Shown: positions 2,930 to 64,000 of the stretch, piece after piece
Layout: every line of letters starts with the position of its first letter
Numbering within the stretch: the stretch's first letter is position 1
Origin: Minisyncoccota bacterium
GTDB taxonomy: Bacteria; Patescibacteriota; Minisyncoccia; Phycocordibacterales; CAIZLB01
NCBI GenBank assembly: GCA_021734945.1
Contig: JAIPIA010000001.1
Location: 4,465 to 68,464 of the forward strand
DNA: 64,000 nt
Reading direction: 5' to 3'
Notes under the pieces: generated by a model
What the model was told of the DNA's origin: nothing
Seen by the model: only the letters and a program-made list of their open reading frames with translations
Databases searched by the model: none
Made by a program: the position numbers and the translations under genes

Positions 2930-5900
2930 ATGCTATCAAAATATAAAAATAGAAAATTATATGTCTCTCTTTTGCTTGTATGTTTTCTTGTTGTTTTTTC
3001 TTTGATAAAATTTAATTCTGTATCAGCGGCAACTACCTCAGCCCCAAGAAGTCTTGGTGGTTCAATCACCTCATCTACTTCGATTACTCTTACTTGGCTT
3101 CCACCTGCTGTAGGTGCAGCTACAGTTACTGATTATTTAGTTGAATACAAGCTCTCAGCCGATTCATCATGGACAACATTTACTGATGGTGTATCGACTG
3201 CTACAACCACAACAGTTACAGGGCTTACAAATGGCTCAAACTATGATTTTCGTATATCAGCTATCAATATCGATGGGACGAGCACTCCCTCATATGTGAT
3301 TTCAATAGTTTCATGGGTGTCGGCAACCGGTGGTACAGTAACAGAAGTTGGAGGTTATCGTCTTCATACATTTACATCAAGTAGTAGTATTTCATTTCAA
3401 AGTGGAGGATCAGTTGAAACACTTATCGTCGGTGGAGGTGGAGGTGGAGGCACTACTGTTGCTGGTGGAGGTGGAGCGGGAGGTGTTGTCTCAACTTCAA
3501 CTAATGTCTCATCAGGTACTCTAGCTGTTACAGTTGGTGGAGGTGGAGCGGGAGGCGTAAATGGTGCGGCTGGTGCCAATGGATCAAATGGTGCGACATC
3601 AACTTTTAATTCTATTAGTGCATCTGGAGGTGGAGCTGGTGCGGGTTTTAATACGGCTGGTTCGGCAGGTGCTTCAGGTGGAGGAACTGGTGCTAATAGT
3701 ACTGGTGCGGGAGGTACCGCTATTTCAGGGCAAGGTTTTGCTGGAGGTACTGGAGCGAGCGCTACTCTTAATGCTGGTGGAGGTGGAGGTGGAGCGGGAG
3801 GTGTTGGAGGTAATGGACTTAATGGGGTGGCAGGAAATGGAGGTACTGGTGTTCAGAGTTCAATTACAGGAACAGCTGTTTATTATGGAGGTGGAGGTGG
3901 GGGAGGAAGCCGAACTAGTTCTGGAGGTATTTCTGCCGGAGTTGGAGGTAATGGAGGTGGAGGTGCTGGAGGAATTTCAACAGTTGGATATGCCGGAACT
4001 GCAAACACTGGAGGTGGAGGAGGAGGAGGCGGTTTTAATGGAGCACATCTTGGTGGAGGTAATGGAGGAAGTGGAATAATTATAATTAGATATCCAGTAG
4101 TTTTCAGTGGAATTTTGCAAGTTCCAGTCATTTCTTCTGCTGTGTCAAATACTCAAAAAGTGACACTTGTTTGGTCGATAGGTCAAGGTTCATCTCCGCA
4201 GATTACAGATTTTAAGATTGAATACAAGCTCTCAGCCGATTCATCATGGACAACATTTACTGATGGTGTATCGACTGCTACAACCACAACAGTAACAGGG
4301 CTTACAAATGGTCAGAGCTATGACTTTAGAATTTCATCCATAAATTCTTCAAGTGCAACAAGTGATCCTTCAGATACTGTTACAGTAACACCAAATGTAT
4401 CAGTGCCGAGTACTCCACAAAATATTTTTATAACCGTTGGCTCCAGCACAAGAGCTATTCTCACATGGGATGCACCGGTGTTAGATAACGGCGCAAGTAC
4501 AACAGACTATCTTATCGAATACAAGCTCTCAGCCGATTCATCATGGACAACATTTACTGATGGTGTATCGACTGCTACAACCACAACAGTTACAGGGCTT
4601 TTAGATACTTTATCATATGATTTTCGGGTATCCGCTATTAATAGTGTGGGCACAAGTTCACCATCAAGTACCGTGACTGACACGCCGGGATATTTTGTAC
4701 TAGTTGATAATTTCGATACCTCTGTAATTAATACCTCTAAGTGGACTGAATTTGATGCTGCTGTTGGTGGTAGCGGAGGAAGTGCTGGTAATGTGCAACA
4801 GAGTGCTGGAAAACTTTCGGTTACTGGAAACAGCGCATGGGGACAAAACGGACTTCAATCTAATGCTACATTCAGTAGGTCATTTGGTGATGTTGAAGTC
4901 AAGGTAACCATGACTGGAAGCTGTACAGTAGGAACTAGTTTTAATTTTGGATATGGAGATATAAATTTTGGAGCAGCGGGTACGTACTCATATATTATAT
5001 CAAAAGCTGGTAGTTCATGGACTCTTTACTATTTCCAAAATGGGAGCAACTCCACTTCTGTTCCTATGTCGGGTATACCTTGTACAACGGGTAATGATGT
5101 GACTTTAAGGATGGTAGCCTTACAGGCTGGTGGAGTAAGTGTATTTGTAGGCACTTCAACAACCCCTGTTGCGACGGTGGCGAGTGGAACCTTTAATAAT
5201 AAAAAAGTATGGCTTCAGACAAACGGTAATGGGGATATTACTACTTTTGATAATCTTCGGGTGTCTGAACCATTGTCTTTACCCCTTGCTCCTGGATCAA
5301 TAGTTGTATCTCCTGCTGACTCTCAAGTAGATTTGTCTTGGGTGGCAGGCAACGCAAATGGTTCAACAATTACTGATTATCAATTACAGTATAAACTCCC
5401 TACAACCGCAACTTGGACTACTTTTAGTGATAGTGTCTCAACAAGTACTACGGGTAGTATTATGGGATTAACAAACGGTATTATATATAATTTTCGAGTT
5501 GTTCCAATAAGTAATAACGGTACGGGAACTCCTTCTGTTGCTGTAAGTTCAGCTGCTCGAATTACTACTCTTGCAGCTCCAACCGCCACTTCTGTTTCTA
5601 TACTTGGAACACCTACAGTTGATGAGACACTCCGTGGATATTATTTATTTGCTGACCCTAATGGAGATATTGAGGGTTCTTCCACATATAGATGGCTTGT
5701 ATCAAACACTGCTGGTGGTACATATACTCCAATCTCTGGTGCTATAAGTAACACTTATGTTGTAACTTCCAATGAGTCTGGAAAGTATCTCAAGTTTGAA
5801 GTAACTCCTGTATCTAGTATTGGGCCTTATGTGGGATCTGCAGTATTAAGTTCATCTTCATTGCAAGTTGCTACAACAAGTTATATCAATCACATTCTTT

Positions 5901-50569: not shown

Positions 50570-51757
50570 ATGCGAAAAAAGATACTGGTAGCCACTGTCC
50601 TCGGATTGATGGTGATTGTACCCATAATCAGTCTGAAAGTGACAGGTTTAGAGTCAATAAAAGATACAAATCAAGATATTGTGGTCGCTAAGTCACTGAG
50701 CGATCTTCCTGTTGGCGAAGTTAAGGAGTATCAAGTACAGAAGGGTGATACTTTTGCCGGTGTCATGACCAATATGGGTATTCAATATGACGAAGCTCTT
50801 GCCATCATGAACTCTTCAAAAGATACTTTTGATTTCACTAAAATAAATGCTGGAAAGTTCTTGAAGTTTGTGTTTGTTAACGAAGCTTTTGCAGCGATGG
50901 AATATCCGCTCAACAGCGACACTGTCATTCATGTTAAAAGAGAAGATGATTCTTTCAAGATAACTGAGGAAGATATTCCGTACAATATTGAGATGACGAC
51001 AGCTAAGGGCACAATTACTGATTCTTTGTTTGTTGCGGCTCAGGATGTTGGAGTTGAGGATAAGGTTACGTTAAAACTTGCAGATATATTTTCTAGCGAC
51101 ATAGACTTTGCTACTGATATCCAAGACGGCGATTCGTTCTCTGTCGTGTATGAAAAGAGAACGTTAGATGGCAAGCCTGCCAGTGCGGGAAAAGTGCTTG
51201 GTGCAAAATTTACAAATGACGGTACAACTTACACCGCTTTTCGTTACAATGATGGATTCTATAATGAAGACGGAGAGTCACTCACTCGTCAATTTCTCAA
51301 ATCTCCACTCAACTATGCTCGTATAAGTTCGGGATTCAGTTTTAAGCGAACAAATCCAGTGACTAAACAGGTTACTCCTCATCGTGCTATTGATTACGCC
51401 GCATCTGCAGGTACTCCTGTTATTGCAACTGCTGATGGAACGGTCTCTGTTGCTGGTTCAAAAGGAGGTCTGGGAATAACGGTAGAGTTAAAGCATGGCG
51501 AGTATCTTACGCAATACGCTCATCTCTCAGATATTGCGGACGGTATTAAAAAGGGCGTCGATGTAAAACAAGGAGACATTGTCGGCTACGTAGGTTCAAC
51601 AGGCATTTCAACTGGTCCACATTTGCAGTATGCAATGTTTAAGAATGGTAACCCTATCAACCCATTAGATACGGATTTCCCAAGAGGAGAAGCTTTGAGT
51701 GATTCTGAAAAACCTAATTTTGATTCTGTAAAAAATAAATTACTAGGTCTTATCTAG
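50570..51757 (+). CDS. M23-family metallopeptidase (LytM/lysostaphin-like), secreted
   Basis: HRAIDYAASAGTPVIATADG, HGEYLTQYAHLS, GYVGSTGISTGPHLQYAM (HxxxD ... HxH motifs). Signal anchor. Confidence 0.8.
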   Translation: MRKKILVATVLGLMVIVPIISLKVTGLESIKDTNQDIVVAKSLSDLPVGEVKEYQVQKGDTFAGVMTNMGIQYDEALAIMNSSKDTFDFTKINAGKFLKFVFVNEAFAAMEYPLNSDTVIHVKREDDSFKITEEDIPYNIEMTTAKGTITDSLFVAAQDVGVEDKVTLKLADIFSSDIDFATDIQDGDSFSVVYEKRTLDGKPASAGKVLGAKFTNDGTTYTAFRYNDGFYNEDGESLTRQFLKSPLNYARISSGFSFKRTNPVTKQVTPHRAIDYAASAGTPVIATADGTVSVAGSKGGLGITVELKHGEYLTQYAHLSDIADGIKKGVDVKQGDIVGYVGSTGISTGPHLQYAMFKNGNPINPLDTDFPRGEALSDSEKPNFDSVKNKLLGLI

Positions 51758-53070
51758 TTGCTGAGTGATAGCACCTTATCCTTAAGTGTCAGTTTACTTT
51801 TTAGGTGACTCAGTAGTTCTCGCTTTTCGTATAGAGGTCTCTTTCTTAGAATGTGCTTGGCGTAGTTGCGTATATCTATATCTTTTATTTTTACTTTCTC
51901 TTTGACTTCTTTTCCTAGTACTGATTCTTGAAATTCATTATGAGCTTCTATTTCAGCTCTAATTCTGTCTTTCATTCCGATTTCATCTAGTGATATCACA
52001 TCAAGTACATTTGCTAATTGTTCTATCAAGTCTTCTTCTCGTACATACCCGCATTGGCAATTTTTATCCTTAAATTTAGTGCATCCATAGTAGACGTAGC
52101 GATTTGTCGTTCCGTCTTTAAGTTTCTTGAATTTCTCGTCAGCGGTTATGCCTGATCCACATAGTCCGCAGGTAATCATCTTGGTAAAGGCGAACTCCTT
52201 ATCCTGAGTCCTTGTTAGGTGATCGTTGCTTATCTTATCCTGCACTTGGTTATATAAATCTTTCGTGATGATCGGCTCGTGCTTTCCGACATACCATTGT
52301 CCGCTTCCTTTCGGGTACTCAAATTCGCCGTAGTAGAAAGTGCTTTTGAGAATTATGTACACATTACTCAGTGTCAGTGGCTTTCCGTGCTTTGTCTTGA
52401 ATCGTATGTCCTCAGCTAACCACTTGAAGAGCTTCCGTCCAGACCATCCGTCGTATGCTACTTTCTCGAACATCTGTTTAATCACATGAGCTCTTTGCTC
52501 ATCGGGCATCACCTCACACTTTCTGTTCCTGTCAGAGTGGCTCAGATAACCCGTTGGGGGAACTGATGGCCATAATCCCATTTCGCATCTCGCTCGAAGT
52601 CCTCGCTTTACGTTCACCATCTTGTTGTCGTTCTCCAGTTTCGCTTGGCTTCCCAAAATCATCAGAAGGAATTTCTCATTTGGATTGTTTGTGAACTTCT
52701 GTCCGTAAGTGCGGATTTCGTGCAGAAGCTTCTGATCCATCAGGTCTACTACCGACCCAAGGTCACCAGCATTTCTGCTTAATCGGTCGGGTTCCCATGT
52801 CAGGATTCCGTTAAATTTTCCTTGTCTTATTTCACTGATCAGCTCGTTATATACAGGTCTTTGTCCAACCTCTTTTGATGAGTGCGATTCTCGCTTTATT
52901 TCGACTATTTCTAAACCCTCTCGCTCGGCGAGACTTATCATCTCTTTAACCTGCGATTCTATTGATAATGCTTGTTTGTCTTCTTGCTCTGTTGATTTGC
53001 GAGCATAGAGGCAGTACTTAATCGGTATGACCTCCTCAGGCTTCTCTGGTTGCTTGTTTTCTATCTTCAT
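51754..53070 (-). CDS. large serine recombinase (resolvase/invertase catalytic domain, recombinase domain and zinc ribbon); probable integrase of the downstream island
   Basis: N-terminal YARKSTEQED...SIESQ catalytic Ser motif, DRLSRN, C-terminal CGLCGSG...YYGC zinc ribbon. 438 aa. Confidence 0.85.
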   Translation of the reverse strand: MKIENKQPEKPEEVIPIKYCLYARKSTEQEDKQALSIESQVKEMISLAEREGLEIVEIKRESHSSKEVGQRPVYNELISEIRQGKFNGILTWEPDRLSRNAGDLGSVVDLMDQKLLHEIRTYGQKFTNNPNEKFLLMILGSQAKLENDNKMVNVKRGLRARCEMGLWPSVPPTGYLSHSDRNRKCEVMPDEQRAHVIKQMFEKVAYDGWSGRKLFKWLAEDIRFKTKHGKPLTLSNVYIILKSTFYYGEFEYPKGSGQWYVGKHEPIITKDLYNQVQDKISNDHLTRTQDKEFAFTKMITCGLCGSGITADEKFKKLKDGTTNRYVYYGCTKFKDKNCQCGYVREEDLIEQLANVLDVISLDEIGMKDRIRAEIEAHNEFQESVLGKEVKEKVKIKDIDIRNYAKHILRKRPLYEKRELLSHLKSKLTLKDKVLSLSN

Positions 53071-53169
53071 ACCTACATTGATGACGCTGATTGCTCTAGG
53101 AGTCTAGAGCGTCCTAGACTGGCTAAGTCGGTAACTTTTTAGGCTCAAAATCTTTCAAAATTAGCATTT

Positions 53170-56100
53170 TTGTTGTATGATTTGTTGCAAATATACACCA
53201 TGAGTGCCTCAAAATTTAAATTTTTAAAAGATGCTCCTATTGGAAAAGAATCCCAAGGTTTTTTTGATTTCTATCATAAAAATATAGCCCCAGCATTAAA
53301 GACAATTGTTGAAAATGATTCATGTGTTCATACTGTTGGTTTATTTGGGAAATGGGGTAGCGGAAAAAGTACTATTATCAAACTACTTAAAGAGGGTGGA
53401 GTTGAGGATGCGACCATCGTAGAATTCGACTGTTGGAAATATGAAAAGGATTCACTGAGAAGACAGTTGCTTTTACAGATCGCTAAAGATCTTGGTGTGA
53501 GTAGAAAGAATATCGATGAACTAGAAAAAGAGCTTTATTTTTCTTTGAGCGAAACTATAAATGAAAAAGTATCAATTTCTTGGGGATATCTAAAGAAAGT
53601 GGCACTTATTTCTTTCGCTTTTCTTCTGCCGGTAGGTTTTATAACATGGCAAATATTTCCTGATGTTGCTACACAATGGAAACTTTGGGTTGGCACTAGT
53701 TTTTCTCTAGTCTTATCCATTGCATTGTTAGTAGAGAAGGTGTTGGGTGATGATTTCAAAAAAATTATAATGGTCTCACCAATAACTGCCTCAAAAGCCC
53801 AACTCAGCTCCCCAGAACAGTTTGAGCGTTCTTTTATAAAGATATTAAAAACTACAAAAATCGATAAACAAAAAATTATTATTGTTATTGATAACCTTGA
53901 TCGTGTTGAATCGAAGGTAGCAACTGAGGTTTTGGCAACTCTCAAAACATTTTTAGAGATAAGTGAAGATAATTTGGGAAAAAAGAAGGTGATATTTCTT
54001 GTTCCGTGCGACTTTGATGCGATTAAAAAATCTGCTCCAAGTGCTGAGTTAGCGGATGAATTTTTAAGAAAGATTTTTAATGTAGTGATTTGGACACCTG
54101 AGTTCATCGATGTCGATATTCGAACATTTATAAAAGAACAAATAAGTCAGACTGGCGATATCAAAACTCACCTTGATGAAGAAGATGTAATTTTGGTCAT
54201 TGATTCCGCCTTTGCTAATAGCCCCAGAGAAATAAAACAATTTATAAACAATCTCATTTCTTCACTGATTGTTGCTTCTGAAACGGAAGTAAAAGATATT
54301 GTAGAAAAGAATGTTGCTTATATGGCAAAAGTACTTGTACTCATGCATAAATATCCAAAGGCATTTCAGAATCTAAAAAAGCTTTGGTATGCTCCTGAGG
54401 AAATTATTAATACTTATGAAGAGGTTCTCATAAAACATGAAAAAGAGGAATTTAACGAAGGCTTCAAAAATTTCATGCTGAGCACAAGCCGGATCACAGT
54501 ACTAGATGCTGAACCTTTCATTTATTTAAAGAAGCCTGTTGTATCTAATCGATTAACTAATGCAGACCCCATCCGACTTAGCCTTATTGAAGCAAAAGAG
54601 ACGGAGGCAAAAGACTTGGTGCAATCTGAGACTGACAAAGTTGCCCTTGTTGAGTTCATTATATCTATTTTGAATAAGTACCAGAACCAACCCGAAATAC
54701 TGAAGAACGTATTTATTACGCAACTTTCGATATTTAAAGAACTCAATATTTCAATTACAAAAAATTATTTAAACAAAGTAGGATCTCTTTTGGACGGTAA
54801 GGTATGGCCATATTTTCAAGATCTAAAGACAGACTTGATTTTTAGTTTTATTATCGCAGATGCTCAATTAGAACAGAATTTAAAGAAAAACATCCTAGAG
54901 CGGTATGTCTTGGCTTTAACTTCTACAGAAGAGTTTAAGAATTTTCAAAAAATAGAAATAGCAAAATTGATAATTAAAAGTTTGATTGAACATCAAAATC
55001 TGCTTACACCTGATCAAAAAATTAAGTTTGCACAGTCAATTGAACAAATATATACAGGTAAAGAAGACGTGATTGAATTATTTGTAAAAGCTGATGACCG
55101 TGGGCAGTTAATAACTAAGAAGACATTAGAGCAAGTAATAACAGGTAGTACTTTAGAGAATTTCTCTCTTAGGAAGGATCTATTCGTTAGCTTTCAGAAA
55201 TTGATTTCACTAAGAAAACTATTTTCTTTAATCTACGTTAAATTATCAGAATTATTGTCTCAACATAATACAAAACAGCCAGCTTTCGGTGAAGAAAAGG
55301 AACAGTATTTAAAACAGGTTCTTGAGCTAATATCCAAATATAAAGATGACCTTGCTCAGGTTCCAAAACCTGACGTAATTGAACTTGTAAGGTTGAATAT
55401 ACAAACGTTTAATAATATTAGCTCTTGGGATCAGCGGATTACGATTATCAATATCCTACAGCACTTACAGAGTATTGCAGATGATGGTCAAAAAGCGGAG
55501 ATAGGGTCTTTACTGAGTCAGTTTATACAGAATGCGACACCTGCGACTGTTCAAAAAATGTTTGCTTATTGGAAAATAACTTACATTCAATCTCTTATTA
55601 CAAAATTATTGACGCAATTACAACCGAGAATATCTTCAGATAAGATTTTTGCAAAAGTTATTTATGATTTTGCATCAACTGAGACCAGATTGGCAATATT
55701 AAAGTATCTTATTACTAACGAACATGATGCAACTATCGACTTTATCGGAACTCTTGCTGAAGGTGATTTTAATCGGGTTGAGGTAGTAAAAATGTTCTTG
55801 GATAAAGCTAAAACACTTCAAGCTAGCGATCGTGTAAGAATATATGATTTCATTTCTGAAAAAATTAGTATAAATGATGAGGTCGCTATAAAAGACCTTG
55901 TTGTAGAGCAAATCCGAGAATTACTTAATCAAGATGAACAAAATGTTTCCAAGGTTGGTTTTGATTTCTTTTGTAAGTCAGATTTTCTCGGGGAAGCTAA
56001 AAAGCGAGATGCTATCATAAAACCCGCGCTTGAATATCTTAGACAAGCTGGAAAAACTATAACTGAACAAAATAGTTACACGCTAAAAGCCATAGCCTCT

Positions 56101-56421
56101 TTTTTCAATAAACTACAGGAGACACCGCAAAAAGATTTTGTGTACTCTCTATTCAATATGTTGAGACCTGATAGAAATATGCAAACTATTGAAACTAGTC
56201 TTGAGAATTTGTTACTTGTTAAACCAGCTTTTGGCACATACGAGAAAGATTACAAAGATTTACTTGAGTCCCTAAAGAATTGGACTCAAGAAAACACAAA
56301 AACAAAGGTAATAGAGGCCATTGTTAGTCTTAAATCATTAGGTAATTTAAGTACCGAAGAAAAAGACTTTTGGAACTCAGTTGATGAGTTACTACCCAAA
56401 AAAGGAGAATCAGAAGTTTAA
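53170..56421 (+). CDS. KAP-family P-loop NTPase with TM helices inserted in the NTPase domain (Tmn-like); start possibly at 53200
   Basis: Walker A GLFGKWGSGKST, FDCWKYEKD, two hydrophobic helices (LISFAFLLPVGFITW, GTSFSLVLSIALLV) between Walker A and Walker B IIIVIDNLDR, KAP motif NSPREIKQFINNL. About 650-aa alpha-helical C-terminal region. Confidence 0.8.
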   Translation: MLYDLLQIYTMSASKFKFLKDAPIGKESQGFFDFYHKNIAPALKTIVENDSCVHTVGLFGKWGSGKSTIIKLLKEGGVEDATIVEFDCWKYEKDSLRRQLLLQIAKDLGVSRKNIDELEKELYFSLSETINEKVSISWGYLKKVALISFAFLLPVGFITWQIFPDVATQWKLWVGTSFSLVLSIALLVEKVLGDDFKKIIMVSPITASKAQLSSPEQFERSFIKILKTTKIDKQKIIIVIDNLDRVESKVATEVLATLKTFLEISEDNLGKKKVIFLVPCDFDAIKKSAPSAELADEFLRKIFNVVIWTPEFIDVDIRTFIKEQISQTGDIKTHLDEEDVILVIDSAFANSPREIKQFINNLISSLIVASETEVKDIVEKNVAYMAKVLVLMHKYPKAFQNLKKLWYAPEEIINTYEEVLIKHEKEEFNEGFKNFMLSTSRITVLDAEPFIYLKKPVVSNRLTNADPIRLSLIEAKETEAKDLVQSETDKVALVEFIISILNKYQNQPEILKNVFITQLSIFKELNISITKNYLNKVGSLLDGKVWPYFQDLKTDLIFSFIIADAQLEQNLKKNILERYVLALTSTEEFKNFQKIEIAKLIIKSLIEHQNLLTPDQKIKFAQSIEQIYTGKEDVIELFVKADDRGQLITKKTLEQVITGSTLENFSLRKDLFVSFQKLISLRKLFSLIYVKLSELLSQHNTKQPAFGEEKEQYLKQVLELISKYKDDLAQVPKPDVIELVRLNIQTFNNISSWDQRITIINILQHLQSIADDGQKAEIGSLLSQFIQNATPATVQKMFAYWKITYIQSLITKLLTQLQPRISSDKIFAKVIYDFASTETRLAILKYLITNEHDATIDFIGTLAEGDFNRVEVVKMFLDKAKTLQASDRVRIYDFISEKISINDEVAIKDLVVEQIRELLNQDEQNVSKVGFDFFCKSDFLGEAKKRDAIIKPALEYLRQAGKTITEQNSYTLKAIASFFNKLQETPQKDFVYSLFNMLRPDRNMQTIETSLENLLLVKPAFGTYEKDYKDLLESLKNWTQENTKTKVIEAIVSLKSLGNLSTEEKDFWNSVDELLPKKGESEV

Positions 56422-56513
56422 AATTAGACCTAATTCCCTTACTGGGATACCTGTAGGTAACTTTATTTTTTCTTTCTACACATTTTATCTGATTCAAGCT
56501 AACATGTAGATTA

Positions 56514-57335
56514 ATGGCAAAGAAGATTTTAGCTTACATAAAACAAAAACCTCACTTTTCACACAAAGATTTTGTACTGTATCTTGGTGATTCTACTGAT
56601 ATTCTCAACTCACTTCCTGAAGGTTCAATAGATATGATTTTTGCAGATCCTCCGTACATGCTTTCAAACGGAGGCTTTACTGTTCATGCTGGAAAAATGG
56701 TAAGTGTCGACAAAGGAAACTGGGACAAGAGTAAGGGATTTGATGAGGATTATGCTTTTCACAAAAGATGGTTGGAAGCGTGTCATAGGGTTTTAAAACC
56801 ACATGGCACCATCTGGGTTAGTGGCACCTATCACTCTATCTATCAATGTGGTCATGCAATTCAATCAATTGGCTTCCATGTCTTAAACGATATTACTTGG
56901 TTTAAACCAAACGCATCACCAAACCTTAGTTGCCGTTTCTTTACCGCAAGTCACGAGACGATTCTTTGGGCTAGGAAACATAAGAAAGCAAAACACACTT
57001 TCAATTACGATTTGATGAAAAATGGTGAATGGGCAGAAGATTTTATAAAGAAGCCTAATTTACAAATGCGTTCAGTGTGGGCAGTTAATCCTCCAAAGAA
57101 AGAAGAGAAGAAATTTACAAAGCACCCAACACAAAAACCCCTTTCACTTCTTGAGAGAATTGTCTTAGCTAGTACTAATAAGGGAGACATTGTACTCGAC
57201 CCATTTACTGGAAGTTCAACAACAGGAATCGCCGCGAAAAAGCACGGACGAAAGTTTATCGGTATTGATACTGAGGAGAAGTACTTAGATCTTTCTCAAA
57301 AACGCTTTCAAGATTTAGTCGGGGCTGGTAATTAA
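56514..57335 (+). CDS. beta-class N6-adenine/N4-cytosine DNA methyltransferase (DpnA/M.HinfI-like)
   Basis: Motif IV IFADPPY precedes motif I LDPFTGSSTTGIAAKKHGRKFIGID (beta permutation). Also TKHPTQKPLSLLERI. Confidence 0.85.
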   Translation: MAKKILAYIKQKPHFSHKDFVLYLGDSTDILNSLPEGSIDMIFADPPYMLSNGGFTVHAGKMVSVDKGNWDKSKGFDEDYAFHKRWLEACHRVLKPHGTIWVSGTYHSIYQCGHAIQSIGFHVLNDITWFKPNASPNLSCRFFTASHETILWARKHKKAKHTFNYDLMKNGEWAEDFIKKPNLQMRSVWAVNPPKKEEKKFTKHPTQKPLSLLERIVLASTNKGDIVLDPFTGSSTTGIAAKKHGRKFIGIDTEEKYLDLSQKRFQDLVGAGN

Positions 57336-58173
57336 CTATTACCACTTCGGATATTTTTCCACGTTTATCAGATTTTGAATTAATCATTCTATTGGCGTAT
57401 ACAGGAATCTGTTTATATCCAGAATATATTTCTTGAATAAAAGGTGCACTTGAATTGCTGAGCATTACATATACACCTTTTTTGTCGAGTTCAATAAATA
57501 AGTCTCGAAGCTTTATTTGGTCATCTTTAGAAAAAGAATCTTTACTGTAACTAGTAAAACTGGATGTCTCGGAAAGTGGGTGATACGGCGGATCAAAATA
57601 TACAAAATCTCCAGCTTTAGCATTCTTTACAGCATCAACAAATGAACCGCTCGTTATTTTAGCATTTGAAAGTATTTTAGAAACTGATCGCAGGTTTTCC
57701 TCGTCTACAATTTTTGGATTCTTGTAACTACCAATCGGTACATTGAATCCACCTTTTGAATTTTCTCGATACACACCATTAAATGCTGTCTTATTGAAGA
57801 AGAGGAAGTAGAGACTCTTATCAAAGTCTTCATGAGATAATGAATTATATCTTTCCCGTAATGCATAATAAACCTCTTTGCGAGCAATCTCGTCTTTTTT
57901 GAGAAAATCTTCCTCAAGTTTCTTAAGAGACTTTATCAATCCCTCTACATCATTCTTTATGTGAATATAAGTCTGAGCAAGTGTTTTATTTATATCGTTG
58001 ATATGTGCCTTTTTAGGATTAATTGAAAAAAATACCGCACCTCCACCGATAAAGGGTTCAAAGTATGAATTAAATTCTTTCGGGAAAAGACTCTCGAACT
58101 GAGCAAGAAGTTGTCCCTTTCCACCTACCCATTTTAGGAATGGTTTTGCTTTTTTAGTGTTATTTAACTTCAC
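57256..58173 (-). CDS. alpha-class Dam-family N6-adenine DNA methyltransferase (DpnM/GATC-type)
   Basis: PFLKWVGGKGQLL, motif I YFEPFIGGGAVFF, INDIN, motif IV VYFDPPYHP. The 3' 80 nt overlap the convergent beta-methyltransferase gene. Confidence 0.85.
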   Translation of the reverse strand: MKLNNTKKAKPFLKWVGGKGQLLAQFESLFPKEFNSYFEPFIGGGAVFFSINPKKAHINDINKTLAQTYIHIKNDVEGLIKSLKKLEEDFLKKDEIARKEVYYALRERYNSLSHEDFDKSLYFLFFNKTAFNGVYRENSKGGFNVPIGSYKNPKIVDEENLRSVSKILSNAKITSGSFVDAVKNAKAGDFVYFDPPYHPLSETSSFTSYSKDSFSKDDQIKLRDLFIELDKKGVYVMLSNSSAPFIQEIYSGYKQIPVYANRMINSKSDKRGKISEVVIVNYQPRLNLESVFEKDLSTSPQYQYR

Positions 58174-58248
58174 GGTTCCATTTTATCATTTTGGAATCAA
58201 TAAGCCTATATCATTGTTATTGGACTGATTTTGTGATTAAATTGAATC

Positions 58249-58773
58249 ATGAAAATAGGAGGGATTGGAGGTGCTAATACAAAATCAGGGCTCCATTTTG
58301 AAGGAAGGGTTGATTTCCTTGAGGTTCTTAAGACTGTGTCTGGATACGAAGTAAAGGAAGATGGATCAATCTTATTTCAAGGCAAGGTGGTTGCTCTCAA
58401 CCTTCGAAAGAGTCGACTCTACAAATACCTTGAAAGCAAGGGTGTAAACCATAAAGAAATTCTATCAAAGAAGCTTCTACCTGATGATGCGATCCTGATT
58501 CTTGGCACTAATGCATTTTATGTAATTGAAATTAAGTTTCAGAGTGTCGCAGGATCGGTAGATGAAAAATTACAGACATGTCATTTTAAAAAACGACAGT
58601 ATGAAAAGCTAATGGATTCACTCGGTGTAAAAGTTGAGTATATTTATATTCTAAGTGAGTGGTTCCAAGCACCTGCATACAAAGATGTACTCGCATATAT
58701 CAAGGAGGTTGACTGCGATTATTTCTTTGAAGAAATCACACTAAATCGACTAGGTCTTCCGTCTCCAAAATAA
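58249..58773 (+). CDS. candidate type II restriction endonuclease (PD-(D/E)xK fold), 174 aa
   Basis: LPDDAILILGTNAFYVIEIKFQ gives a textbook PD-x(13)-EIK signature. Adjacent to the two methyltransferases. Confidence 0.4.
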   Translation: MKIGGIGGANTKSGLHFEGRVDFLEVLKTVSGYEVKEDGSILFQGKVVALNLRKSRLYKYLESKGVNHKEILSKKLLPDDAILILGTNAFYVIEIKFQSVAGSVDEKLQTCHFKKRQYEKLMDSLGVKVEYIYILSEWFQAPAYKDVLAYIKEVDCDYFFEEITLNRLGLPSPK

Positions 58774-59340
58774 TTATCTGAAGCCTGGCATCGCTGACTG
58801 GAGCACTTCGGTATAATGTTTGTTTCCATCGATATAATCTCTCAGTATTAATAGAAGATTTTTAAACATATATGCTCCTGGGTTTATTTTCTCGTTTTTA
58901 CAGAACAGCTCAATCATTATTGCTACATAGTCCAAAGAAAGTGTGTAGTCTTGTTCGATGTGTGCATATCTTGTCGTAATTTCATTGATAGTTTCAAGTT
59001 GATATTTATTTCTGTCTTCAACAGATATAAATGGTGATGTACGTTCGTAGAAATCGATATAGTACTGAACTATAGATCGTACATCATCTCGGTACTGCGG
59101 AATTTTTAACAATAAATCTACCACCCAAAAAGTGTGAGTTGGTGGAGTCATTACTTTACTAGCTCCAGGCACGAGAATTTTTATAACAAAGTCTATGTCT
59201 GGTCTCGTGCCTCGATTACCTTGGAATAATCCAATCAAGGTTCCGTCACGAGTTGCATATGTTTTAAAGGCGACGAGGCGAGGTCTCAGCTGTCCGAGGT
59301 CAGTTCCATTATAGTATTTTGAATTATAGATGTGTGGCAT
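58774..59340 (-). CDS. hypothetical protein (188 aa); possible second R-M or defense component
   Basis: Tail-to-tail with the PD-(D/E)xK gene, with abutting stop codons. No recognised motif. Confidence 0.35.
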   Translation of the reverse strand: MPHIYNSKYYNGTDLGQLRPRLVAFKTYATRDGTLIGLFQGNRGTRPDIDFVIKILVPGASKVMTPPTHTFWVVDLLLKIPQYRDDVRSIVQYYIDFYERTSPFISVEDRNKYQLETINEITTRYAHIEQDYTLSLDYVAIMIELFCKNEKINPGAYMFKNLLLILRDYIDGNKHYTEVLQSAMPGFR

Positions 59341-59510
59341 TAGGTCAATTATAGCAAAAAGTAGACTGTTGGTAACCCGAGCTTCGCAAGGCTCTATATC
59401 TAAGCTAGAGTCTAGATAGATAGCTCTGTTTTTGCTATCATGTACTTATACAACAAAGACCTAACCCCTTAGAAAACGCTTAGTTTCCTAAGGATATGGT
59501 CGGAATAATA

Positions 59511-59680
59511 AAACCGCTACAGTATAGAAGACTCCTCGTCAGAGTCACTGTAGCGGTCGCGTACCCGAAAGGGTATGTGGGTCTGATCGAAAGATTGGAT
59601 CACAATGGCGGGGAGTCTTCTGTCTCACGACTCAAGGCTTCTTGCTAATTACCAGCATTAAGTCAAAACCGCTACAGTGA
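59511..59680 (+). repeat. GC-rich structured element bounded by 13-bp direct repeats (aaaccgctacagt) with nested inverted repeats
   Basis: The direct repeat sits at 59511-59523 and 59666-59678, with an inverted copy actgtagcggt at 59547-59557. gaagactcc (59527) pairs with ggagtcttc (59612). tacccGAAAgggta is a tetraloop hairpin. GC content is far above the flanks. Confidence 0.4.
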
Positions 59681-60150
59681 CTCAAAAAAATAATGATCTG
59701 GATAAGATCAATAAAAATATCTACATTAAAACCTATGTGGTCAGTATTGTTTCGTACCTGATTCTCGTAGGACTCATCTCAACCTTTCTTGAAAGTCCGT
59801 TTATTCAAACACTTTTAGTTACAGCAGGAGCTCTTCTTGTTTGGACTATATTCAAATCGATCATTGGTTCAGTTACATTCAATTTGTTCTTTAGAAATGA
59901 TCTAATTGAAAAGTACCTACACGAGTTTAAGGCGAATGATTTTCCTAAACCACAGGATTATGAAATGGAAGAGGTTGAATCGTACTTACAAACAATTGCG
60001 ATGAATCCTGATAATCATCCAAAAAATATTGTTGCCACAGGAATGCTTAGCGAATTTGGGCACGCCCGTACTCAAGGAAGTATGCTCGTCTTACTCAGAC
60101 TGACAAAGGTTATGAAAAAGGCTTTGAGGAAATATAGCTACTTCAGTTAA
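59677..60150 (+). CDS. hypothetical membrane protein (GTG start inside the direct repeat; start uncertain)
   Basis: 157-aa ORF with two TM helices. Confidence 0.3.
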   Translation: MTQKNNDLDKINKNIYIKTYVVSIVSYLILVGLISTFLESPFIQTLLVTAGALLVWTIFKSIIGSVTFNLFFRNDLIEKYLHEFKANDFPKPQDYEMEEVESYLQTIAMNPDNHPKNIVATGMLSEFGHARTQGSMLVLLRLTKVMKKALRKYSYFS

Positions 60151-60550
60151 TAGGTTATCCACATTCGATATCTCAAAAACTCTATAAAGTAGCGTTATTT
60201 TGAAAGTGACAGAAATGAGTCTCAAAAAGACACTTGCAGTCTCATGATTTGTGATAAAATAATCACAGAAGCACTAAGACATCCCCCATATTGAAACGGC
60301 TGAGAATCAAATCAGCTAAGTCTATGCAATGTAGCCTAGATGGAAAACCCACAGAAACTATCTTCTGATAGTAGAATGACGCTGGTGACCATATCTGGCA
60401 ATAGAAATTTTTAACTCCAAAGGTTAAAGGTTCTATTGCTTGCAGGTCGACACAATAGACAAAAACCCGCCTTTGGTATTAAAGATAACTTTGATATCGT
60501 AGGCGGTTTTTTGTTGCTTCTAGATTACAAATTAATTATCTAGCAAGTAT

Positions 60551-61873
60551 ATGAACAAAGAAAATCTAAAGATTGTGTACGTCTCAATCTACAGCCTTGT
60601 CGCAAATGACAAGAATCCACGCAAATGGAGTGAGGAACAAAAGGAACAGCTCAAGGAAAGCATCAAACGATTCGGCAACGTCGATCCGATAATCGTGAAC
60701 ACACACGAGGAAAGGAAAAATATAATCGTCGGAGGACATTTTCGTGTGGAAGCGTGTAAGGAACTGGGATACAAGAATATGCCAGTCGTATTCGTGAATC
60801 TCACACCAGAAAAAGAAGCAGAACTAAACCTTAGACTCAACCGCAATCAAGGAGAGTTTGATCTTGAGATGCTCGCTGAGTTCGACAGCTCAATGCTTCT
60901 TGATATTGGATTTACTTCAGAAGATATCGACGATATTTTTCCAACTGACAAAAATGAAGAGCAATTTGATCTACAAAAGGAATTGGATAAGCTCGATATC
61001 ACAGTCGAAGCCAAGAAAGGTGAAATATACGATCTCGATGGGTCACGACTTATGATTGGTGATTCTACAATCGAAGCAGATATGTTGAAACTCATAGGTG
61101 ACAACAAAGTGGACATGGTTCTTACAGATCCTCCATATATTCTTGATTATCTAAAAGGTAAAGGTCGTGGTAAAGATGGTCCGACTGTCGGGTTCGGTTC
61201 AAAGAAGAATCGCAGATATTTGGAGACTGATGTTTTACCTGAAAACTTCTCTGATCTATGGATGGCAAATGTCGCAAAGGTACAAAAACCAGACTTCTCG
61301 ATTATTATCTTTGAGAATCCTAAAAATCTACGAACCATATGGAATGCACTCGAGGTTCATTGGAAATACAGAAACACTATCACATGGCATGTACCAAATC
61401 GTATGCAGGGATTTTCTGCTTCAAACAAGTTCTTCAACAAGACAGATATCGCACTCGTTGGATCTTCAGGAGAAGTAAATCTCAATCTTGAACCAGAAGA
61501 AGGCTTGTTCCAAAACGAATATGAGAATGCAATATTTGCCACTTCAGGAAAACCTCACTTTGAGCCGTATGAGAAAGGAAAGAAAATCTGTCCGACAGAC
61601 TTCATATCTCATACCGCCGCAGATAAAAAGTCTTCAGGGCAAGAAATTATCTTCGGAACAAAACCAATTGAGCTCCTCATTCCATATCTGAAAGTACTCA
61701 CCAAGAGAAATGATCTCATTCTTGAACCATTCGGAGGAAGTGGAAGTACGCTCATCGCTTCAGTGAAGATGGGTCGCCGTTGCTTCATTATGGAAAAATC
61801 ACACGTATATGCAGAAGTCATTATGAACCGCTGGGAGAAAGAGACTGGTAAGAAGCGTAAGAAAATTAACTAG
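60551..61873 (+). CDS. ParB-like nuclease domain fused to a beta-class N6A/N4C DNA methyltransferase (phage/plasmid-type orphan methylase)
   Basis: N-terminal ParB/Srx fold (IVYVSIYSLVANDKNPRKW...IIVGGHFRVEACKELG). Then methyltransferase motif IV VLTDPPY and motif I LEPFGGSGSTLIAS. Confidence 0.8.
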   Translation: MNKENLKIVYVSIYSLVANDKNPRKWSEEQKEQLKESIKRFGNVDPIIVNTHEERKNIIVGGHFRVEACKELGYKNMPVVFVNLTPEKEAELNLRLNRNQGEFDLEMLAEFDSSMLLDIGFTSEDIDDIFPTDKNEEQFDLQKELDKLDITVEAKKGEIYDLDGSRLMIGDSTIEADMLKLIGDNKVDMVLTDPPYILDYLKGKGRGKDGPTVGFGSKKNRRYLETDVLPENFSDLWMANVAKVQKPDFSIIIFENPKNLRTIWNALEVHWKYRNTITWHVPNRMQGFSASNKFFNKTDIALVGSSGEVNLNLEPEEGLFQNEYENAIFATSGKPHFEPYEKGKKICPTDFISHTAADKKSSGQEIIFGTKPIELLIPYLKVLTKRNDLILEPFGGSGSTLIASVKMGRRCFIMEKSHVYAEVIMNRWEKETGKKRKKIN

Positions 61874-61875
61874 AT

Positions 61876-62262
61876 ATGGCAGTAGATCTAAAGATCAAGA
61901 AGCAAAAGGAAGTTCTGCTTGAGCATCTGCGTACTGTGCCGATTGTTGAAGTAGCTTGCAAGAAAGGAGGAATCTCCAGAGCTACTTTCTATCGCTGGTG
62001 TAGTGACGATGAAGAGTTCAAGACAGAAGTTGAGAACGCCAAGGTAGATGGTGTTGAGAACATAAACGATATGTCGGAAGCTCAACTCATTTCTCTCATC
62101 AGAGAGAAAAAGTATCAAGCTATAGCACTGTGGCTCAAGAACAATCACTATAGATTTATGTCGGAGGACAAGCAAAACCTCATCAGGAAAGTTCAAAAGA
62201 AAACCGAGCTTAATCTCCAACAGAAGGAGTTACTCAAAGAAGCCCTCAAACATTACAAATGA
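61876..62262 (+). CDS. terminase small-subunit-like HTH protein
   Basis: N-terminal HTH ACKKGGISRATFYRWCSDDEEF, typical of TerS and phage DNA-binding proteins. Overlaps the next gene via ATGA. Confidence 0.4.
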   Translation: MAVDLKIKKQKEVLLEHLRTVPIVEVACKKGGISRATFYRWCSDDEEFKTEVENAKVDGVENINDMSEAQLISLIREKKYQAIALWLKNNHYRFMSEDKQNLIRKVQKKTELNLQQKELLKEALKHYK

Positions 62263-63449
62263 AAAAACTATCTCCAGAAGTAATACAGGCAGTCATTAAT
62301 GACACTGCCGTGCGAACTGCACTCGTGTACCAAAATCACGAGGCATTTTGCAGTATCTACCTCAGGAGACATTTGAAATATGAGTTTGCTTGGTTCCATA
62401 AGGAGATGTTTCGGATTACCGAGTCATACCAACACAAGCTCAACGTATTCATGGCATTTAGAGGTTCAGGAAAGTCGACAATCCTGAACCTTTCTAATGT
62501 CCTGTGGAGTATTACAGGAAAGCATCAAAAGAAATTTGTAATAGTAGTAAGCAAGACTCGTGTTCAGTCACAATCTCATTTCGATAACATAAAGCAAGAA
62601 CTCGAAGAAAACGAATTACTCAAACATGACCTCGGTCCATTCCAAGCGACCAAGGAAGATTGGGGTGCATACACTATTGAAATACCAAAGTACGGAGCAA
62701 AGATTATGTGCATTGGAGCCAATCAAAACATACGAGGACTCAAGTATCGTGATCACCGTCCTGACCTAATTATCTGTGACGATATCGAGGATATAAACTC
62801 ATTTACTGACAGAGACCAAATCAAGACTCTCTATGACTGGTTTATGGGAGAACTCTGGTCTATCGGTGACGAAACTATAAATATTGTTGTTCTTGGAAAC
62901 TTGCTCAGCCCATCTTCAATCATGATTAAGTTGTACAAAGCTATTAAGAAAAAAGAAATGCCGGGCATATTCAAAGCGTATCCGCTTCTCGATGATTACA
63001 ATCGCATTCTATGGTCAGCAAAGTATCCTGATGCAAAGACTATTAAAGAAATTGAGCGAGGTTTGCCACGACCACGACGAGATGACTTATATACAATATT
63101 CTCTCGTGAATATTTGTTAGATATGTCCTTGGTTGATACTGATGAGATGCTAGAGAAGCACAAAACACCAATACGTGCTGGCGGAAAGACAGTAAAGAGT
63201 TTTGATATCTCTGCTCCAATGTGGGCTATTGGAACAGTGTGGTATTTTCCTGATGATTTAAGTAATTTCAATTTAGCCGTTGATGATCTGGATGGTTATC
63301 CACTTGAGAAATATATTGAAATTGAAAAGGAATATATTAAATTACAGCAAGAGAAGTATCCAAACTATCAGGTAAAGGTGAGAGGCAGTCAAGGTGAGTC
63401 ACGTGGGTTTGAGGATCACCCTGATAGACCGATGAGGTATAGGGGGTAG
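62259..63449 (+). CDS. terminase large-subunit-like ATPase (short; nuclease domain appears truncated or divergent)
   Basis: Walker A AFRGSGKST, Walker B LIICDDIED, with TerL-like spacing. Only 396 aa. Confidence 0.45.
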   Translation: MKKLSPEVIQAVINDTAVRTALVYQNHEAFCSIYLRRHLKYEFAWFHKEMFRITESYQHKLNVFMAFRGSGKSTILNLSNVLWSITGKHQKKFVIVVSKTRVQSQSHFDNIKQELEENELLKHDLGPFQATKEDWGAYTIEIPKYGAKIMCIGANQNIRGLKYRDHRPDLIICDDIEDINSFTDRDQIKTLYDWFMGELWSIGDETINIVVLGNLLSPSSIMIKLYKAIKKKEMPGIFKAYPLLDDYNRILWSAKYPDAKTIKEIERGLPRPRRDDLYTIFSREYLLDMSLVDTDEMLEKHKTPIRAGGKTVKSFDISAPMWAIGTVWYFPDDLSNFNLAVDDLDGYPLEKYIEIEKEYIKLQQEKYPNYQVKVRGSQGESRGFEDHPDRPMRYRG

Positions 63450-63476
63450 TCTGGTTTTTGACTTATTATTGTGTTC

Positions 63477-63506
63477 TTGCAATATACCCCCTAGGGGGTA
63501 TATAAT
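63477..63506 (+). promoter_or_regulatory. sigma70-like promoter with an embedded perfect 20-bp palindrome; predicted CsoR operator
   Basis: -35 TTGCAA (63477-63482), 18-nt spacer consisting of tataccccctagggggtata (63483-63502, a perfect palindrome), -10 TATAAT (63501-63506). csoR ATG at 63516. Confidence 0.5.
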
Positions 63507-63515
63507 ATATTTATT

Positions 63516-63779
63516 ATGAATTCAAACAAACAAAAGTTAATTCGACGCTTAAAGATTGTAGAGGGTCAGGTACGAGGATTACAGGAGATGCTTGCAAAAG
63601 ATGCATACTGCATCGACATAATTACTCAAACATCGGCGGTCAAACAAGCACTCTCAGGTATTGAAGATGCTCTAATGGAAAATCATTTGAGTACATGTGT
63701 AATTTCTCAAATAAAGAAAGGTAAAGAAAAAACAGCTGTTCAAGAAATACTTAAGGTTTATCAACTTAAAAGAAAATAA
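63516..63779 (+). CDS. csoR: CsoR/RcnR-family metal-sensing transcriptional repressor (copper-sensitive operon repressor)
   Basis: LIRRLKIVEGQVRGLQEML..DAYCIDIITQTSAV..AL.....HLSTCV has the conserved C-H-C metal ligands and the DUF156 fold. 87 aa. Confidence 0.8.
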   Translation: MNSNKQKLIRRLKIVEGQVRGLQEMLAKDAYCIDIITQTSAVKQALSGIEDALMENHLSTCVISQIKKGKEKTAVQEILKVYQLKRK

Positions 63780-63782
63780 AAC

Positions 63783-64000
63783 ATGAACACACCAAAAACC
63801 TACAAAATAAAAGGGATGCACTGTGCTTCATGTGCAGGCATCATCGAAAAAACTTTCAAGAAAACTGAAGGTGTTGAATCGGTTGAAGTAAATTACGGAA
63901 CTGAAACTGCCAAAGTAGCGTTTGATGAATCAAAGACTAATCCGCACCATCTCTCAGAGAAAATAGAAAAGCTTGGTTATACGCTCATTCTTCCCGATGA
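63783..64000 (+). CDS. heavy-metal-associated (HMA) domain protein, N-terminal part: CopZ-like chaperone or the N-terminus of a CopA Cu-ATPase; truncated by the window end
   Basis: YKIKGMHCASCAGIIEK (GMxCxxC) ferredoxin-like HMA fold, immediately downstream of csoR. Confidence 0.8.
   Translation, partial: MNTPKTYKIKGMHCASCAGIIEKTFKKTEGVESVEVNYGTETAKVAFDESKTNPHHLSEKIEKLGYTLILPD

Follow-up and report, generated by a model that had tools for sequence, protein, structure and literature searches.

A LOOT RNA in Patescibacteria integrative elements as a candidate bistable leader of a hypervariable cargo gene

Introduction

LOOT RNA reportedly originated in the 2017 comparative-genomics screen by Weinberg, Breaker, and colleagues. 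Its Rfam entry describes a metagenome-derived sRNA (PMC7779021), and the papers on CaCoFold mention the family solely for its unusual covariation (PMC7657543, PMC11701678). In the literature that could be searched, we found no study of LOOT function, host, or genomic context.

Several described RNAs offer points of comparison. The adenine riboswitch of Vibrio vulnificus add is of the translational ON type with a three-strand expression platform, and the c-di-GMP-I aptamer is braced by a tetraloop–receptor contact. The pRNA of a packaging motor exemplifies a scaffold RNA that serves a protein machine. In mobile elements, the c4 antisense RNA of phages P1 and P7 combines an antisense segment with flanking repeats and a downstream repeat governing the next gene. 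The CI RNA of phage P4 pairs with complementary sequences both upstream and downstream of itself (PMC4825925).

Here, we analyzed a conspicuous segment within a 64-kb window, i.e., the whole stretch of DNA under study. The segment is a genuine structured RNA, and it is a further member of the known orphan family LOOT, not a new class.

Results

Scanning the window with the Rfam covariance models returned LOOT RNA (RF03000) as the sole non-tRNA match in all 64 kb. The match, at 59458–59601 on the + strand, scores 51.8 bits against a gathering score of 46.4 (E = 8e-8), and the curated threshold is thereby exceeded over the complete, untruncated model (positions 1–121 of 121). All consensus helices of the family are present in the window, namely P1 with its CCUAA/YAUGG internal loop, a long P2, a GAAA hairpin, and a GNRA hairpin, and the conserved structure covaries among homologs. 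The initial annotation of this DNA had listed a candidate ncRNA among several readings and had called for an Rfam scan and for a search for covariation across homologous loci. With a full-length LOOT match above the gathering score, and with covariation detected in relatives (pseudoknot included), that reading proved correct. Its suggestion of a ribozyme found no support: no Rfam ribozyme family matched and nothing pointed to catalysis.

The segment and the gene that follows it comprise these parts:

59458–59601 (+), Rfam LOOT RNA match over the full model (1–121), 51.8 bits
59458–59501 (+), P1 hairpin with internal loop CCUAAC (59460–65)/UAUGG (59495–99); P1 pairs covary
59510–59523 (+), copy 1, consisting of the A-rich junction and the P2 5' strand (AAAA-CCGCTACAGT)
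59526–59540 (+), pseudoknot 5' strand in the P2 loop (AGAAGACUCCUCGUC), pairing with 59607–21
59547–59557 (+), copy 2, the P2 3' strand (ACUGUAGCGGU) and proposed switching strand; with 59542–46, it forms 16 nt complementary to 59668–83
59558–59579 (+), P3 hairpin with a GAAA tetraloop at 59567–70, supported by covariation
59580–59601 (+), P4 hairpin with a GAAA loop at 59589–92, supported by the Rfam alignment and covariation
59607–59621 (+), pseudoknot 3' strand (GGCGGGGAGUCUUCU), outside the Rfam model; alternative local hairpin 59606–19 with 59634–47
59665–59683 (+), copy 3, AAAACCGCTACAGT(GACTC), repeating copy 1 and overlapping the GTG start at 59677–79
59677–60150 (+), cargo gene X, a 157-aa predicted membrane protein with a GTG start at 59677, from the ORF list

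Reading the sequence with a repeat finder, we located the pairing of ACCGCTACAGT (59513–23) with ACTGTAGCGGT (59547–57) and the complementarity of AGAAGACTCCTCGTCA (59526–41) to TGGCGGGGAGTCTTCT (59606–21). Both had been noticed in the initial annotation, the second as GAAGACTCC (59527–35) with GGAGTCTTC (59612–20), which is really part of a 15-bp helix between 59526–40 and 59607–21. Their description as nested failed, since the two cross and form a pseudoknot. The GAAA-tetraloop hairpin reported there is present at 59558–79, with a second GAAA hairpin at 59580–59601, and the conspicuous GC content was reproduced (0.43–0.45, rising to 0.47 in the core, versus ~0.33–0.39 in the flanks). The direct repeats that had been taken as boundaries are exact and 14 nt long (AAAACCGCTACAGT at 59510–23 and 59665–78), but they are not its boundaries: the first forms the 5' strand of the internal helix P2, and hairpin P1 (59458–59501) lies upstream of it.

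The fold of 59452–59700 has a predicted energy of −95.2 kcal/mol, with z = −8.55 on the + strand and z = −4.5 on the minus strand. The repeated 11-mer occurs three times in the 64-kb window (≤1 mismatch) versus 0.47 expected, and none of 100 shuffles reaches three. We take the P1 internal loop, CCUAAC/UAUGG, to be the 11-nt GAAA-tetraloop receptor motif (known form CCUAAG...UAUGG).

The 157-aa ORF has just five homolog clusters among 5.8 billion proteins, and every contig encoding a homolog carries a LOOT directly upstream, scoring 51.8 or 84.8 bits with the Rfam model; the higher value is that of the syntenic relatives of the window LOOT. Further relatives were sought by a DNA pattern on the invariant part of P1 (ACCTAACCCC...GGATATGGT), which matched five viral contigs, at least 119 genome contigs, and at least 120 metagenome contigs. 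The matches listed contain ~210 distinct LOOTs with the family's architecture, ~17 chance matches, and three truncated remnants, and all 16 of the diverse LOOT loci tested with the Rfam model score 68–93 bits. Viral-contig protein searches with the two neighboring ORFs and TerL found no relatives. Among the matches listed, named hosts are overwhelmingly Patescibacteria/CPR MAGs, with labels including Nomurabacteria, Paceibacterota, Saccharibacteria, and Kaiser-, Lloyd-, Adler-, Magasanik-, Wildermuth-, and Zambryskibacteria; the few host MAGs labeled outside Patescibacteria are probably mis-binned. The closest relative of the window locus among these matches belongs to a MAG labeled Candidatus Saccharibacteria (L002/L087).

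To assess the structure across the family, 75 LOOT cores with different P2 sequences were aligned by MAFFT, unfitted to any structure. Cells of P1–P4 and the pseudoknot are paired in 86.1% of instances, versus 67.7% in shuffles and ≤46% with slid partners, and 42 of 52 pairs display double-sided changes. In the pseudoknot, the tail that follows P4 pairs with the 5' part of the P2 loop, and some of this helix falls outside the 121-position Rfam model. In the same 75 LOOTs, the pseudoknot cells are 91–98% paired, with compensatory changes in 13 of 15 pairs, and an exact complement of at least 7 nt is found in 63% of LOOTs versus 4.4% in permuted controls. A GAAA loop caps P3 in 203 of 205 LOOTs. 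This near invariance, combined with the receptor motif in P1, makes a P3–P1 tetraloop–receptor contact likely. G·U pairs account for 27% of P3 and 22.5% of P4 pairs, which identifies the + strand as the functional RNA. P2, of which there are at least 77 sequence types, is strictly Watson–Crick (0.9% G·U, 20/2308 pairs), with or without copy 3. Diversifying selection on P2 was considered and ruled out, as its per-site divergence equals that of the rest of LOOT after correction for register shifts (0.108 vs 0.100; 0.055 vs 0.051).

Copies of the P2 5' strand also recur beyond the structured domain. Among the 193 LOOTs with enough downstream sequence, 137 (71%) repeat this strand exactly over at least 8 nt, versus 1.1% when another LOOT's P2 is used. 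Copy 3 lies 116–165 nt downstream, usually together with the A-rich 5' flank, and the three copies covary; in one relative (L003), copies 1 and 3 have changed C>A and copy 2 G>T. Of 136 unique cases, 115 have the end of copy 3 between −3 and +8 nt from the start of an ORF of at least 50 codons, versus 61 of 627 random positions. The spacing has a mode of 3–4 nt, and the copy typically ends 2–7 nt before the start codon. Where LOOTs share one P2 sequence, similarity stops right after the copy-3 core, and a different gene follows. A wobble analysis of RNA pairing versus DNA identity found differences between copies 3 and 1 confined to 1–3 apical positions. The pseudoknot 5' strand has a second repeat in the linker that is weakly enriched (at least 6 nt in 20% vs 11%) and limited to one subclass.

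Shine–Dalgarno motifs are near absent, with one in 25 window genes, 42 in 548 genes of the loci, and one in 90 LOOT-linked genes, so initiation presumably relies on an open A/U-rich start region. We discarded the idea that this absence is special to LOOT-linked genes, as the whole genome lacks Shine–Dalgarno motifs.

The minimum free energy (MFE) structure of the window leader is an alternative state, in which P1 is followed by a 16-bp helix (59542–57:59668–83) over the start codon. This helix encloses P3, P4, and the hairpin 59606–19 with 59634–47 in a four-way junction, leaving copy 1 unpaired. It is perfectly paired throughout and was absent from the initial annotation. Across 90 leaders, a nested energy model that ignores the pseudoknot gives a median difference of +1.5 kcal/mol between the two states, and the MFE structure contains P2 in 55 leaders and the alternative helix in 30; the pseudoknot would favor the LOOT fold. 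On computational evidence, a conserved alternative pairing connects the structured domain to the initiation region or, in the subclass described below, to a terminator. The third local hairpin of the alternative fold is weakly conserved.

A closing helix that ends at the start codon of the window, the narrow spacing between copy 3 and ATG, a genome without Shine–Dalgarno motifs, and at least one neighboring gene that looks leaderless would also suit a processing element or ribozyme. Under that proposal, a cloverleaf-like substrate or a self-cleaving fold would be cut 5' of the start to yield a leaderless mRNA. The segment matches no ribozyme or tRNA-like family, no conserved nucleotides resembling a catalytic core were identified in it, the third local hairpin is only weakly conserved, and the cut is purely conjectural. 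We consider processing of this kind very unlikely.

A second type of platform emerged from the comparison of 185 unique leaders, of which 119 have copy 3 only, 22 a terminator only, 11 both, and 33 neither. In the 22 leaders that have a terminator without copy 3, a hairpin and U-run are followed by ATG 7–36 nt later. The 5' arm of the terminator (e.g., CGCCAGCUA) complements the tail of LOOT (UAGCUGGCG), a stretch overlapping the 3' strand of the pseudoknot, and folding of these leaders gives an antiterminator pairing with the LOOT tail. Cis-regulatory RNAs show this pattern, in which a platform of either the translational or the transcriptional kind is attached to one conserved domain. No terminator was found between LOOT and the downstream ORF in the window.

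Upstream of P1, the following features were annotated:

59366–59376 (+), conserved box CTGTTGGTAAC, where conservation among relatives with different upstream cargo starts
59400–59411 (+), conserved upstream box CTAAGCTAGAGT (consensus CTAAGCTARRGT), from the alignment of relatives
59413–59441 (+), promoter-like site with TAGATA, a 17-nt spacer, and a TG-extended −10 TATCAT (59436–41)

From the promoter-like site, transcription is predicted to start at ~59448–50. A covarying inverted repeat (59419–24 with 59434–39) overlaps the −10, and across 195 LOOT loci, a TGnTAYAAT-like extended −10 is situated 24–30 nt before P1. The arrangement is that of a leader: LOOT lies on the same strand as the ORF and at a constrained distance from it, with a promoter-like site before it and no intervening terminator. 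The box CTGTTGGTAAC also occurs in more distant loci and overlaps the −35 of a minus-strand promoter-like site.

The locus is part of a larger unit:

51754–63449, compact integrative element, borders inferred

Besides LOOT and gene X, the element contains a gene for a large serine recombinase and an operon encoding a ParB-methyltransferase and TerS-like and TerL-like proteins. Its cargo includes a KAP NTPase, two Type II methyltransferases, and a PD-(D/E)XK-like protein, all defense-like, and relatives with the same backbone carry other defense-like genes in that position. Counting just the few kb around each LOOT, 133 of 209 loci contain at least one of a large serine recombinase, a ParB-domain DNA methyltransferase, a TerS-like HTH protein, and a TerL-like protein. 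The commonest gene orders are '<recombinase [LOOT>X>] <TerL <TerS <ParB-MTase' and '<recombinase <TerL <TerS <ParB-MTase [LOOT>X>]'; the recombinase gene is often ~100 nt upstream of LOOT. Every locus has one LOOT, and no LOOT arrays were seen.

Cargo gene X had no match in Pfam, PHROG, or PADLOC. The genes that follow LOOT encode 90 distinct proteins in 41 unrelated clusters, with a median of 198 aa, and about half of them have a hydrophobic segment. Their Pfam matches are sporadic (SNase, HNH, T5orf172, trypsin-like, DUF4352, and bacterial PH); no Pfam family is common to the 90 proteins, and no shared function appeared. An integron-like cassette model was ruled out, there being no fourth copy after the cargo gene.

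A LOOT that occurs exactly once per element, in tight linkage with the recombinase and the ParB-MTase/TerS/TerL module, could instead be a free-standing RNA with a structural or scaffold role. Such an RNA might, for instance, assist the ParB-methyltransferase, the TerS/TerL-like proteins, or the recombinase as a cofactor, and its adjacency to the cargo would be incidental. The compact fold with its tetraloop–receptor and pseudoknot features, the sRNA type assigned by Rfam, and the intrinsic terminator that ends one subclass are consistent with such a role. Copy 3 and its 2–7-nt spacing to the start codon would be left unexplained, however, as would the terminator absence in 119 of 185 leaders. 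Where a terminator exists, ATG follows after only 7–36 nt, with no room for a second promoter, and LOOT does not keep a constant place or direction with respect to the protein genes. A scaffold role appears to us quite improbable.

The repeats and the recombinase also bring up readings at the DNA level: the segment could be a MITE with a target-site duplication, it could serve the recombinase as an att or crossover site, or the inverted P2 arms could enclose an invertible switch. In their favor are the exact 14-bp direct repeat and the 11-bp perfect inverted repeat, a P2 that is as strictly Watson–Crick as DNA repeats would be, rare remnants with a precise deletion between copies 1 and 3 (L049 and L190), and the frequent proximity of the recombinase gene. 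The initial annotation had raised the first two readings and had proposed a genome search for the additional copies that a MITE would produce. LOOT is single-copy, with one in the window and one per related locus, and has neither terminal inverted repeats nor direct repeats that flank it. The supposed target-site duplicate covaries with a complementary strand inside the segment, and the first of its copies resides within the structure, not at its edge. A crossover site would be expected at, or split between, the element ends; here, three copies fall within 170 bp inside the integrated element, and no extra copy exists in the loci, whether at the cargo end or at the element borders, or elsewhere in the window. 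RNA-specific motifs (GNRA loops, the receptor, and abundant G·U in P3/P4) and the covarying pseudoknot further oppose a DNA-level feature, as do the lack of inverted-loop variants among 180 unique loops and the rarity of deletions (3 of ~215). Such readings are already largely refuted, and the chance that one of them is right is extremely small. LOOT is truly linked to elements that encode a serine recombinase, though it is no crossover site itself.

The many P2 types, with all three copies changing in step, could be read as a specificity code. LOOT would then be a processed antisense "immunity" RNA of the P4 CI or P1–P7 c4 type, which we judge unlikely. Equally doubtful is the associated scheme, in which LOOT would be excised from the leader and copy 2 would pair, both in cis and in trans, with copies 1 and 3 in transcripts of its own or an incoming element and shut off the downstream gene. 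The layout resembles seqA-CI(seqB)-seqC of satellite phage P4 (PMC4825925), LOOT sits in a mobile, possibly satellite-like element, and in three of four cases, two LOOTs of the same MAG carry different P2 sequences. Against this stand the Rfam c4 model, which had no match at E ≤ 1 in 57000–64000, and the divergence of P2, which is no faster than that of the rest of LOOT. Moreover, the antisense strand is locked in an 11-bp helix instead of being exposed in a loop, its target is a hypervariable cargo gene and not a conserved replication or antirepressor gene, and no further targets were found in the 64-kb window.

Discussion

We regard it as fairly probable that LOOT acts in cis as a bistable leader at the 5' end of the cargo transcript, with two possible partners for the P2 3' strand, namely the upstream copy and the start region. 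Transcription would begin at a promoter belonging to LOOT and continue into 59677–60150. Its fold (P1 with the receptor, P2, the 15-bp pseudoknot, P3, and P4) would hold copy 2 paired to copy 1. In this scheme, copy 2 is an antisense that the leader itself carries against copy 3 at the start region, and copy 1 competes with copy 3 for it. The A-rich initiation region, which lacks a Shine–Dalgarno motif, would be free in the LOOT-fold state and buried in a 10–16-bp helix in the alternative state, with the tertiary fold of LOOT deciding which partner copy 2 takes. Because host genes lack Shine–Dalgarno motifs, an unstructured initiation region is what such a switch would need to control. The outcome would be riboswitch-like control of translation, or of transcription termination in one subclass, and LOOT would gate the single cargo expression slot of this Patescibacteria integrative element family. 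The analysis established family membership, the structure with its pseudoknot, the covarying third copy and its position, the near-equal energies of the two states, the two platform types, and the genomic context. We infer transcription (its start, read-through into X, and any processing), switching, the polarity (which state is on), and the kind of trigger, be it a small molecule, an element or phage factor, or a physical cue. The alternative state may rarely be populated without a trigger, given that P2 forms first in transcription and would be reinforced by the pseudoknot and the tetraloop–receptor contact.

Several observations weigh against a leader. LOOT-linked genes share no function, unlike those of classical metabolite riboswitches, and 33 of 185 leaders have neither recognizable platform. 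The polarity deduced for the translational subclass differs from that of the terminator subclass, the model leaves the strict Watson–Crick nature of P2 unexplained, and Rfam types LOOT as an sRNA gene.

More tentatively, and with considerable doubt, LOOT might be the sensor domain of a new riboswitch-like class that gates the single cargo slot of an undescribed family of compact, satellite-like integrative elements widespread in Patescibacteria, with a signal tied to the element or phage life cycle. The cargo, comprising membrane proteins, nucleases, and proteases, would then possibly consist of toxic or defense effectors, and the strict Watson–Crick P2 would suggest that a protein or a nucleic acid serves as a further reader.

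Comparative genomics in 2017 yielded a set of orphan structured RNAs that includes LOOT, and this locus with its ~210 relatives supplies a host and a context for it. The family is now placed in Patescibacteria, a vast radiation of ultra-small bacteria that are for the most part uncultured and have few regulatory RNAs known so far. It is tied to a single type of mobile element and to a cargo gene that is hypervariable. Its structure is extended by a pseudoknot, a likely tetraloop–receptor contact, and expression platforms. As far as the searchable literature shows, three points appear to be new, namely the link between LOOT and integrative elements of Patescibacteria, its enlarged architecture, and a specific model of how it regulates. 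If the bistable-leader model is true, strand exchange between two identical sequences decides whether a start without a Shine–Dalgarno motif is open. LOOT may also serve as a marker for finding such elements and their cargo, including restriction–modification and other defense-like genes.

Compared with LOOT as defined in Rfam, the window segment has the same four helices, with the CCUAA/YAUGG loop in P1, a long P2 hairpin, P3 capped by GAAA, and P4 capped by a GNRA loop. It differs by insertions in the P1 loop, J1/2, P3, and P4, and scores just 51.8 bits. The unit described here also exceeds the 121-position model, adding a 15-bp pseudoknot, a linker hairpin, and a start-proximal repeat or terminator.

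P4 CI and P1/P7 c4 (C4, RF01695) resemble LOOT in being structured leader RNAs of mobile elements whose antisense is complementary to repeats on both sides. LOOT has this arrangement of an antisense flanked by upstream and downstream repeats, a resemblance of layout only. It has no sequence or structure homology to C4, its antisense is half of a stem instead of a loop, and its target is variable cargo.

LOOT departs from riboswitches in having no predicted ligand, no conserved pocket identified, and no common gene function. As in add-type riboswitches, the 3' strand of an aptamer-like helix would pair with either its aptamer partner or the initiation region, and the 5' strand and the initiation region share sequence. 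LOOT also has in common with riboswitches a single conserved domain combined with translational and terminator platforms and, likely, a GNRA–receptor contact that braces the fold.

Helix P2 and rearranged LOOTs

Across the window copy (59513-59523 paired with 59547-59557) and all LOOT loci, helix P2 of the RNA is strictly Watson-Crick, with G.U pairs making up 0.9% of its pairs versus 22-27% in P3 and P4. Despite this strictness, the sequence of P2 is as variable as that of the remaining LOOT RNA, a combination that is accounted for by none of the models considered.

Partial copies were found in three of the collected loci:

L049, 7156-7210, plus strand: LOOT remnant
L190, 839-900, plus strand: LOOT remnant
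L218, 1334-1420, plus strand: LOOT remnant

In the L049 remnant, and apparently in that of L190, P1 and copy 1 (the P2 5' strand with its A-rich flank) run straight into an ATG or lie no more than 3 nt from it. Such a junction is what loss of the segment separating copy 1 from copy 3, the repeat of copy 1 at the start codon, would be expected to leave. The ORF opened by this ATG in L190 spans only ~11 codons, and the L218 remnant consists of P1 followed by a terminator hairpin. A further locus, L253, carries a chimeric LOOT (3823-3990, plus strand) whose pseudoknot strands are mismatched because its P2 loop and its tail belong to different types; either natural recombination or chimeric assembly could have produced it.

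Flanking and overlapping signals

Two features lie upstream of the window LOOT:

59375-59348, minus strand: promoter-like site, TTACCA-16-TGnTATAAT
59419-59424 and 59434-59439: inverted repeat, GATAGC/GCTATC, its 3' arm overlapping the LOOT -10 box

The -35 element of the promoter-like site falls within a conserved box, CTGTTGGTAAC (59366-59376). Since the site ends 7 nt ahead of the ATG (59340) of a 188-aa gene, its placement suggests that the mRNA of this gene is leaderless. Counterparts of the inverted repeat occur in other loci, with changed sequence and retained complementarity, and the repeat possibly serves as an operator or forms an upstream hairpin. Shine-Dalgarno motifs are all but missing across the genome. 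Among the 25 long ORFs of the window, which include those at 60551, 56514, and 53200, one has such a motif; in related loci, 42 of 548 do. A 50-codon ATG ORF (59496-59648, plus strand), situated entirely within the LOOT structure, is almost certainly spurious.

The surrounding element

LOOT and its cargo gene X reside in a compact integrative element:

51754-63449 (borders inferred): integrative element without capsid genes

At 51754-51757, the recombinase gene (minus strand) and an M23-peptidase-like ORF (plus strand, 50570-51757) share 4 nt at their 3' ends, which leaves no intergenic space for an attachment site there and renders the left border uncertain. In several loci, tRNA genes located no more than a few kb from LOOT are possible integration targets:

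L025, 6823-6895: tRNA gene
L028, 1470-1541: tRNA gene
L100, 5316-5388: tRNA gene
L190, 1270-1341: tRNA gene

Besides LOOT and X, the element encodes a large serine recombinase, a KAP NTPase, two Type II methyltransferases, a PD-(D/E)XK-like protein, a ParB-methyltransferase, and TerS-like and TerL-like proteins. This backbone is found again in three LOOT loci (L002, L003, and L010) and at >130 Patescibacteria loci, combined there with other defence-like cargo. It may represent a family of satellite-like elements.
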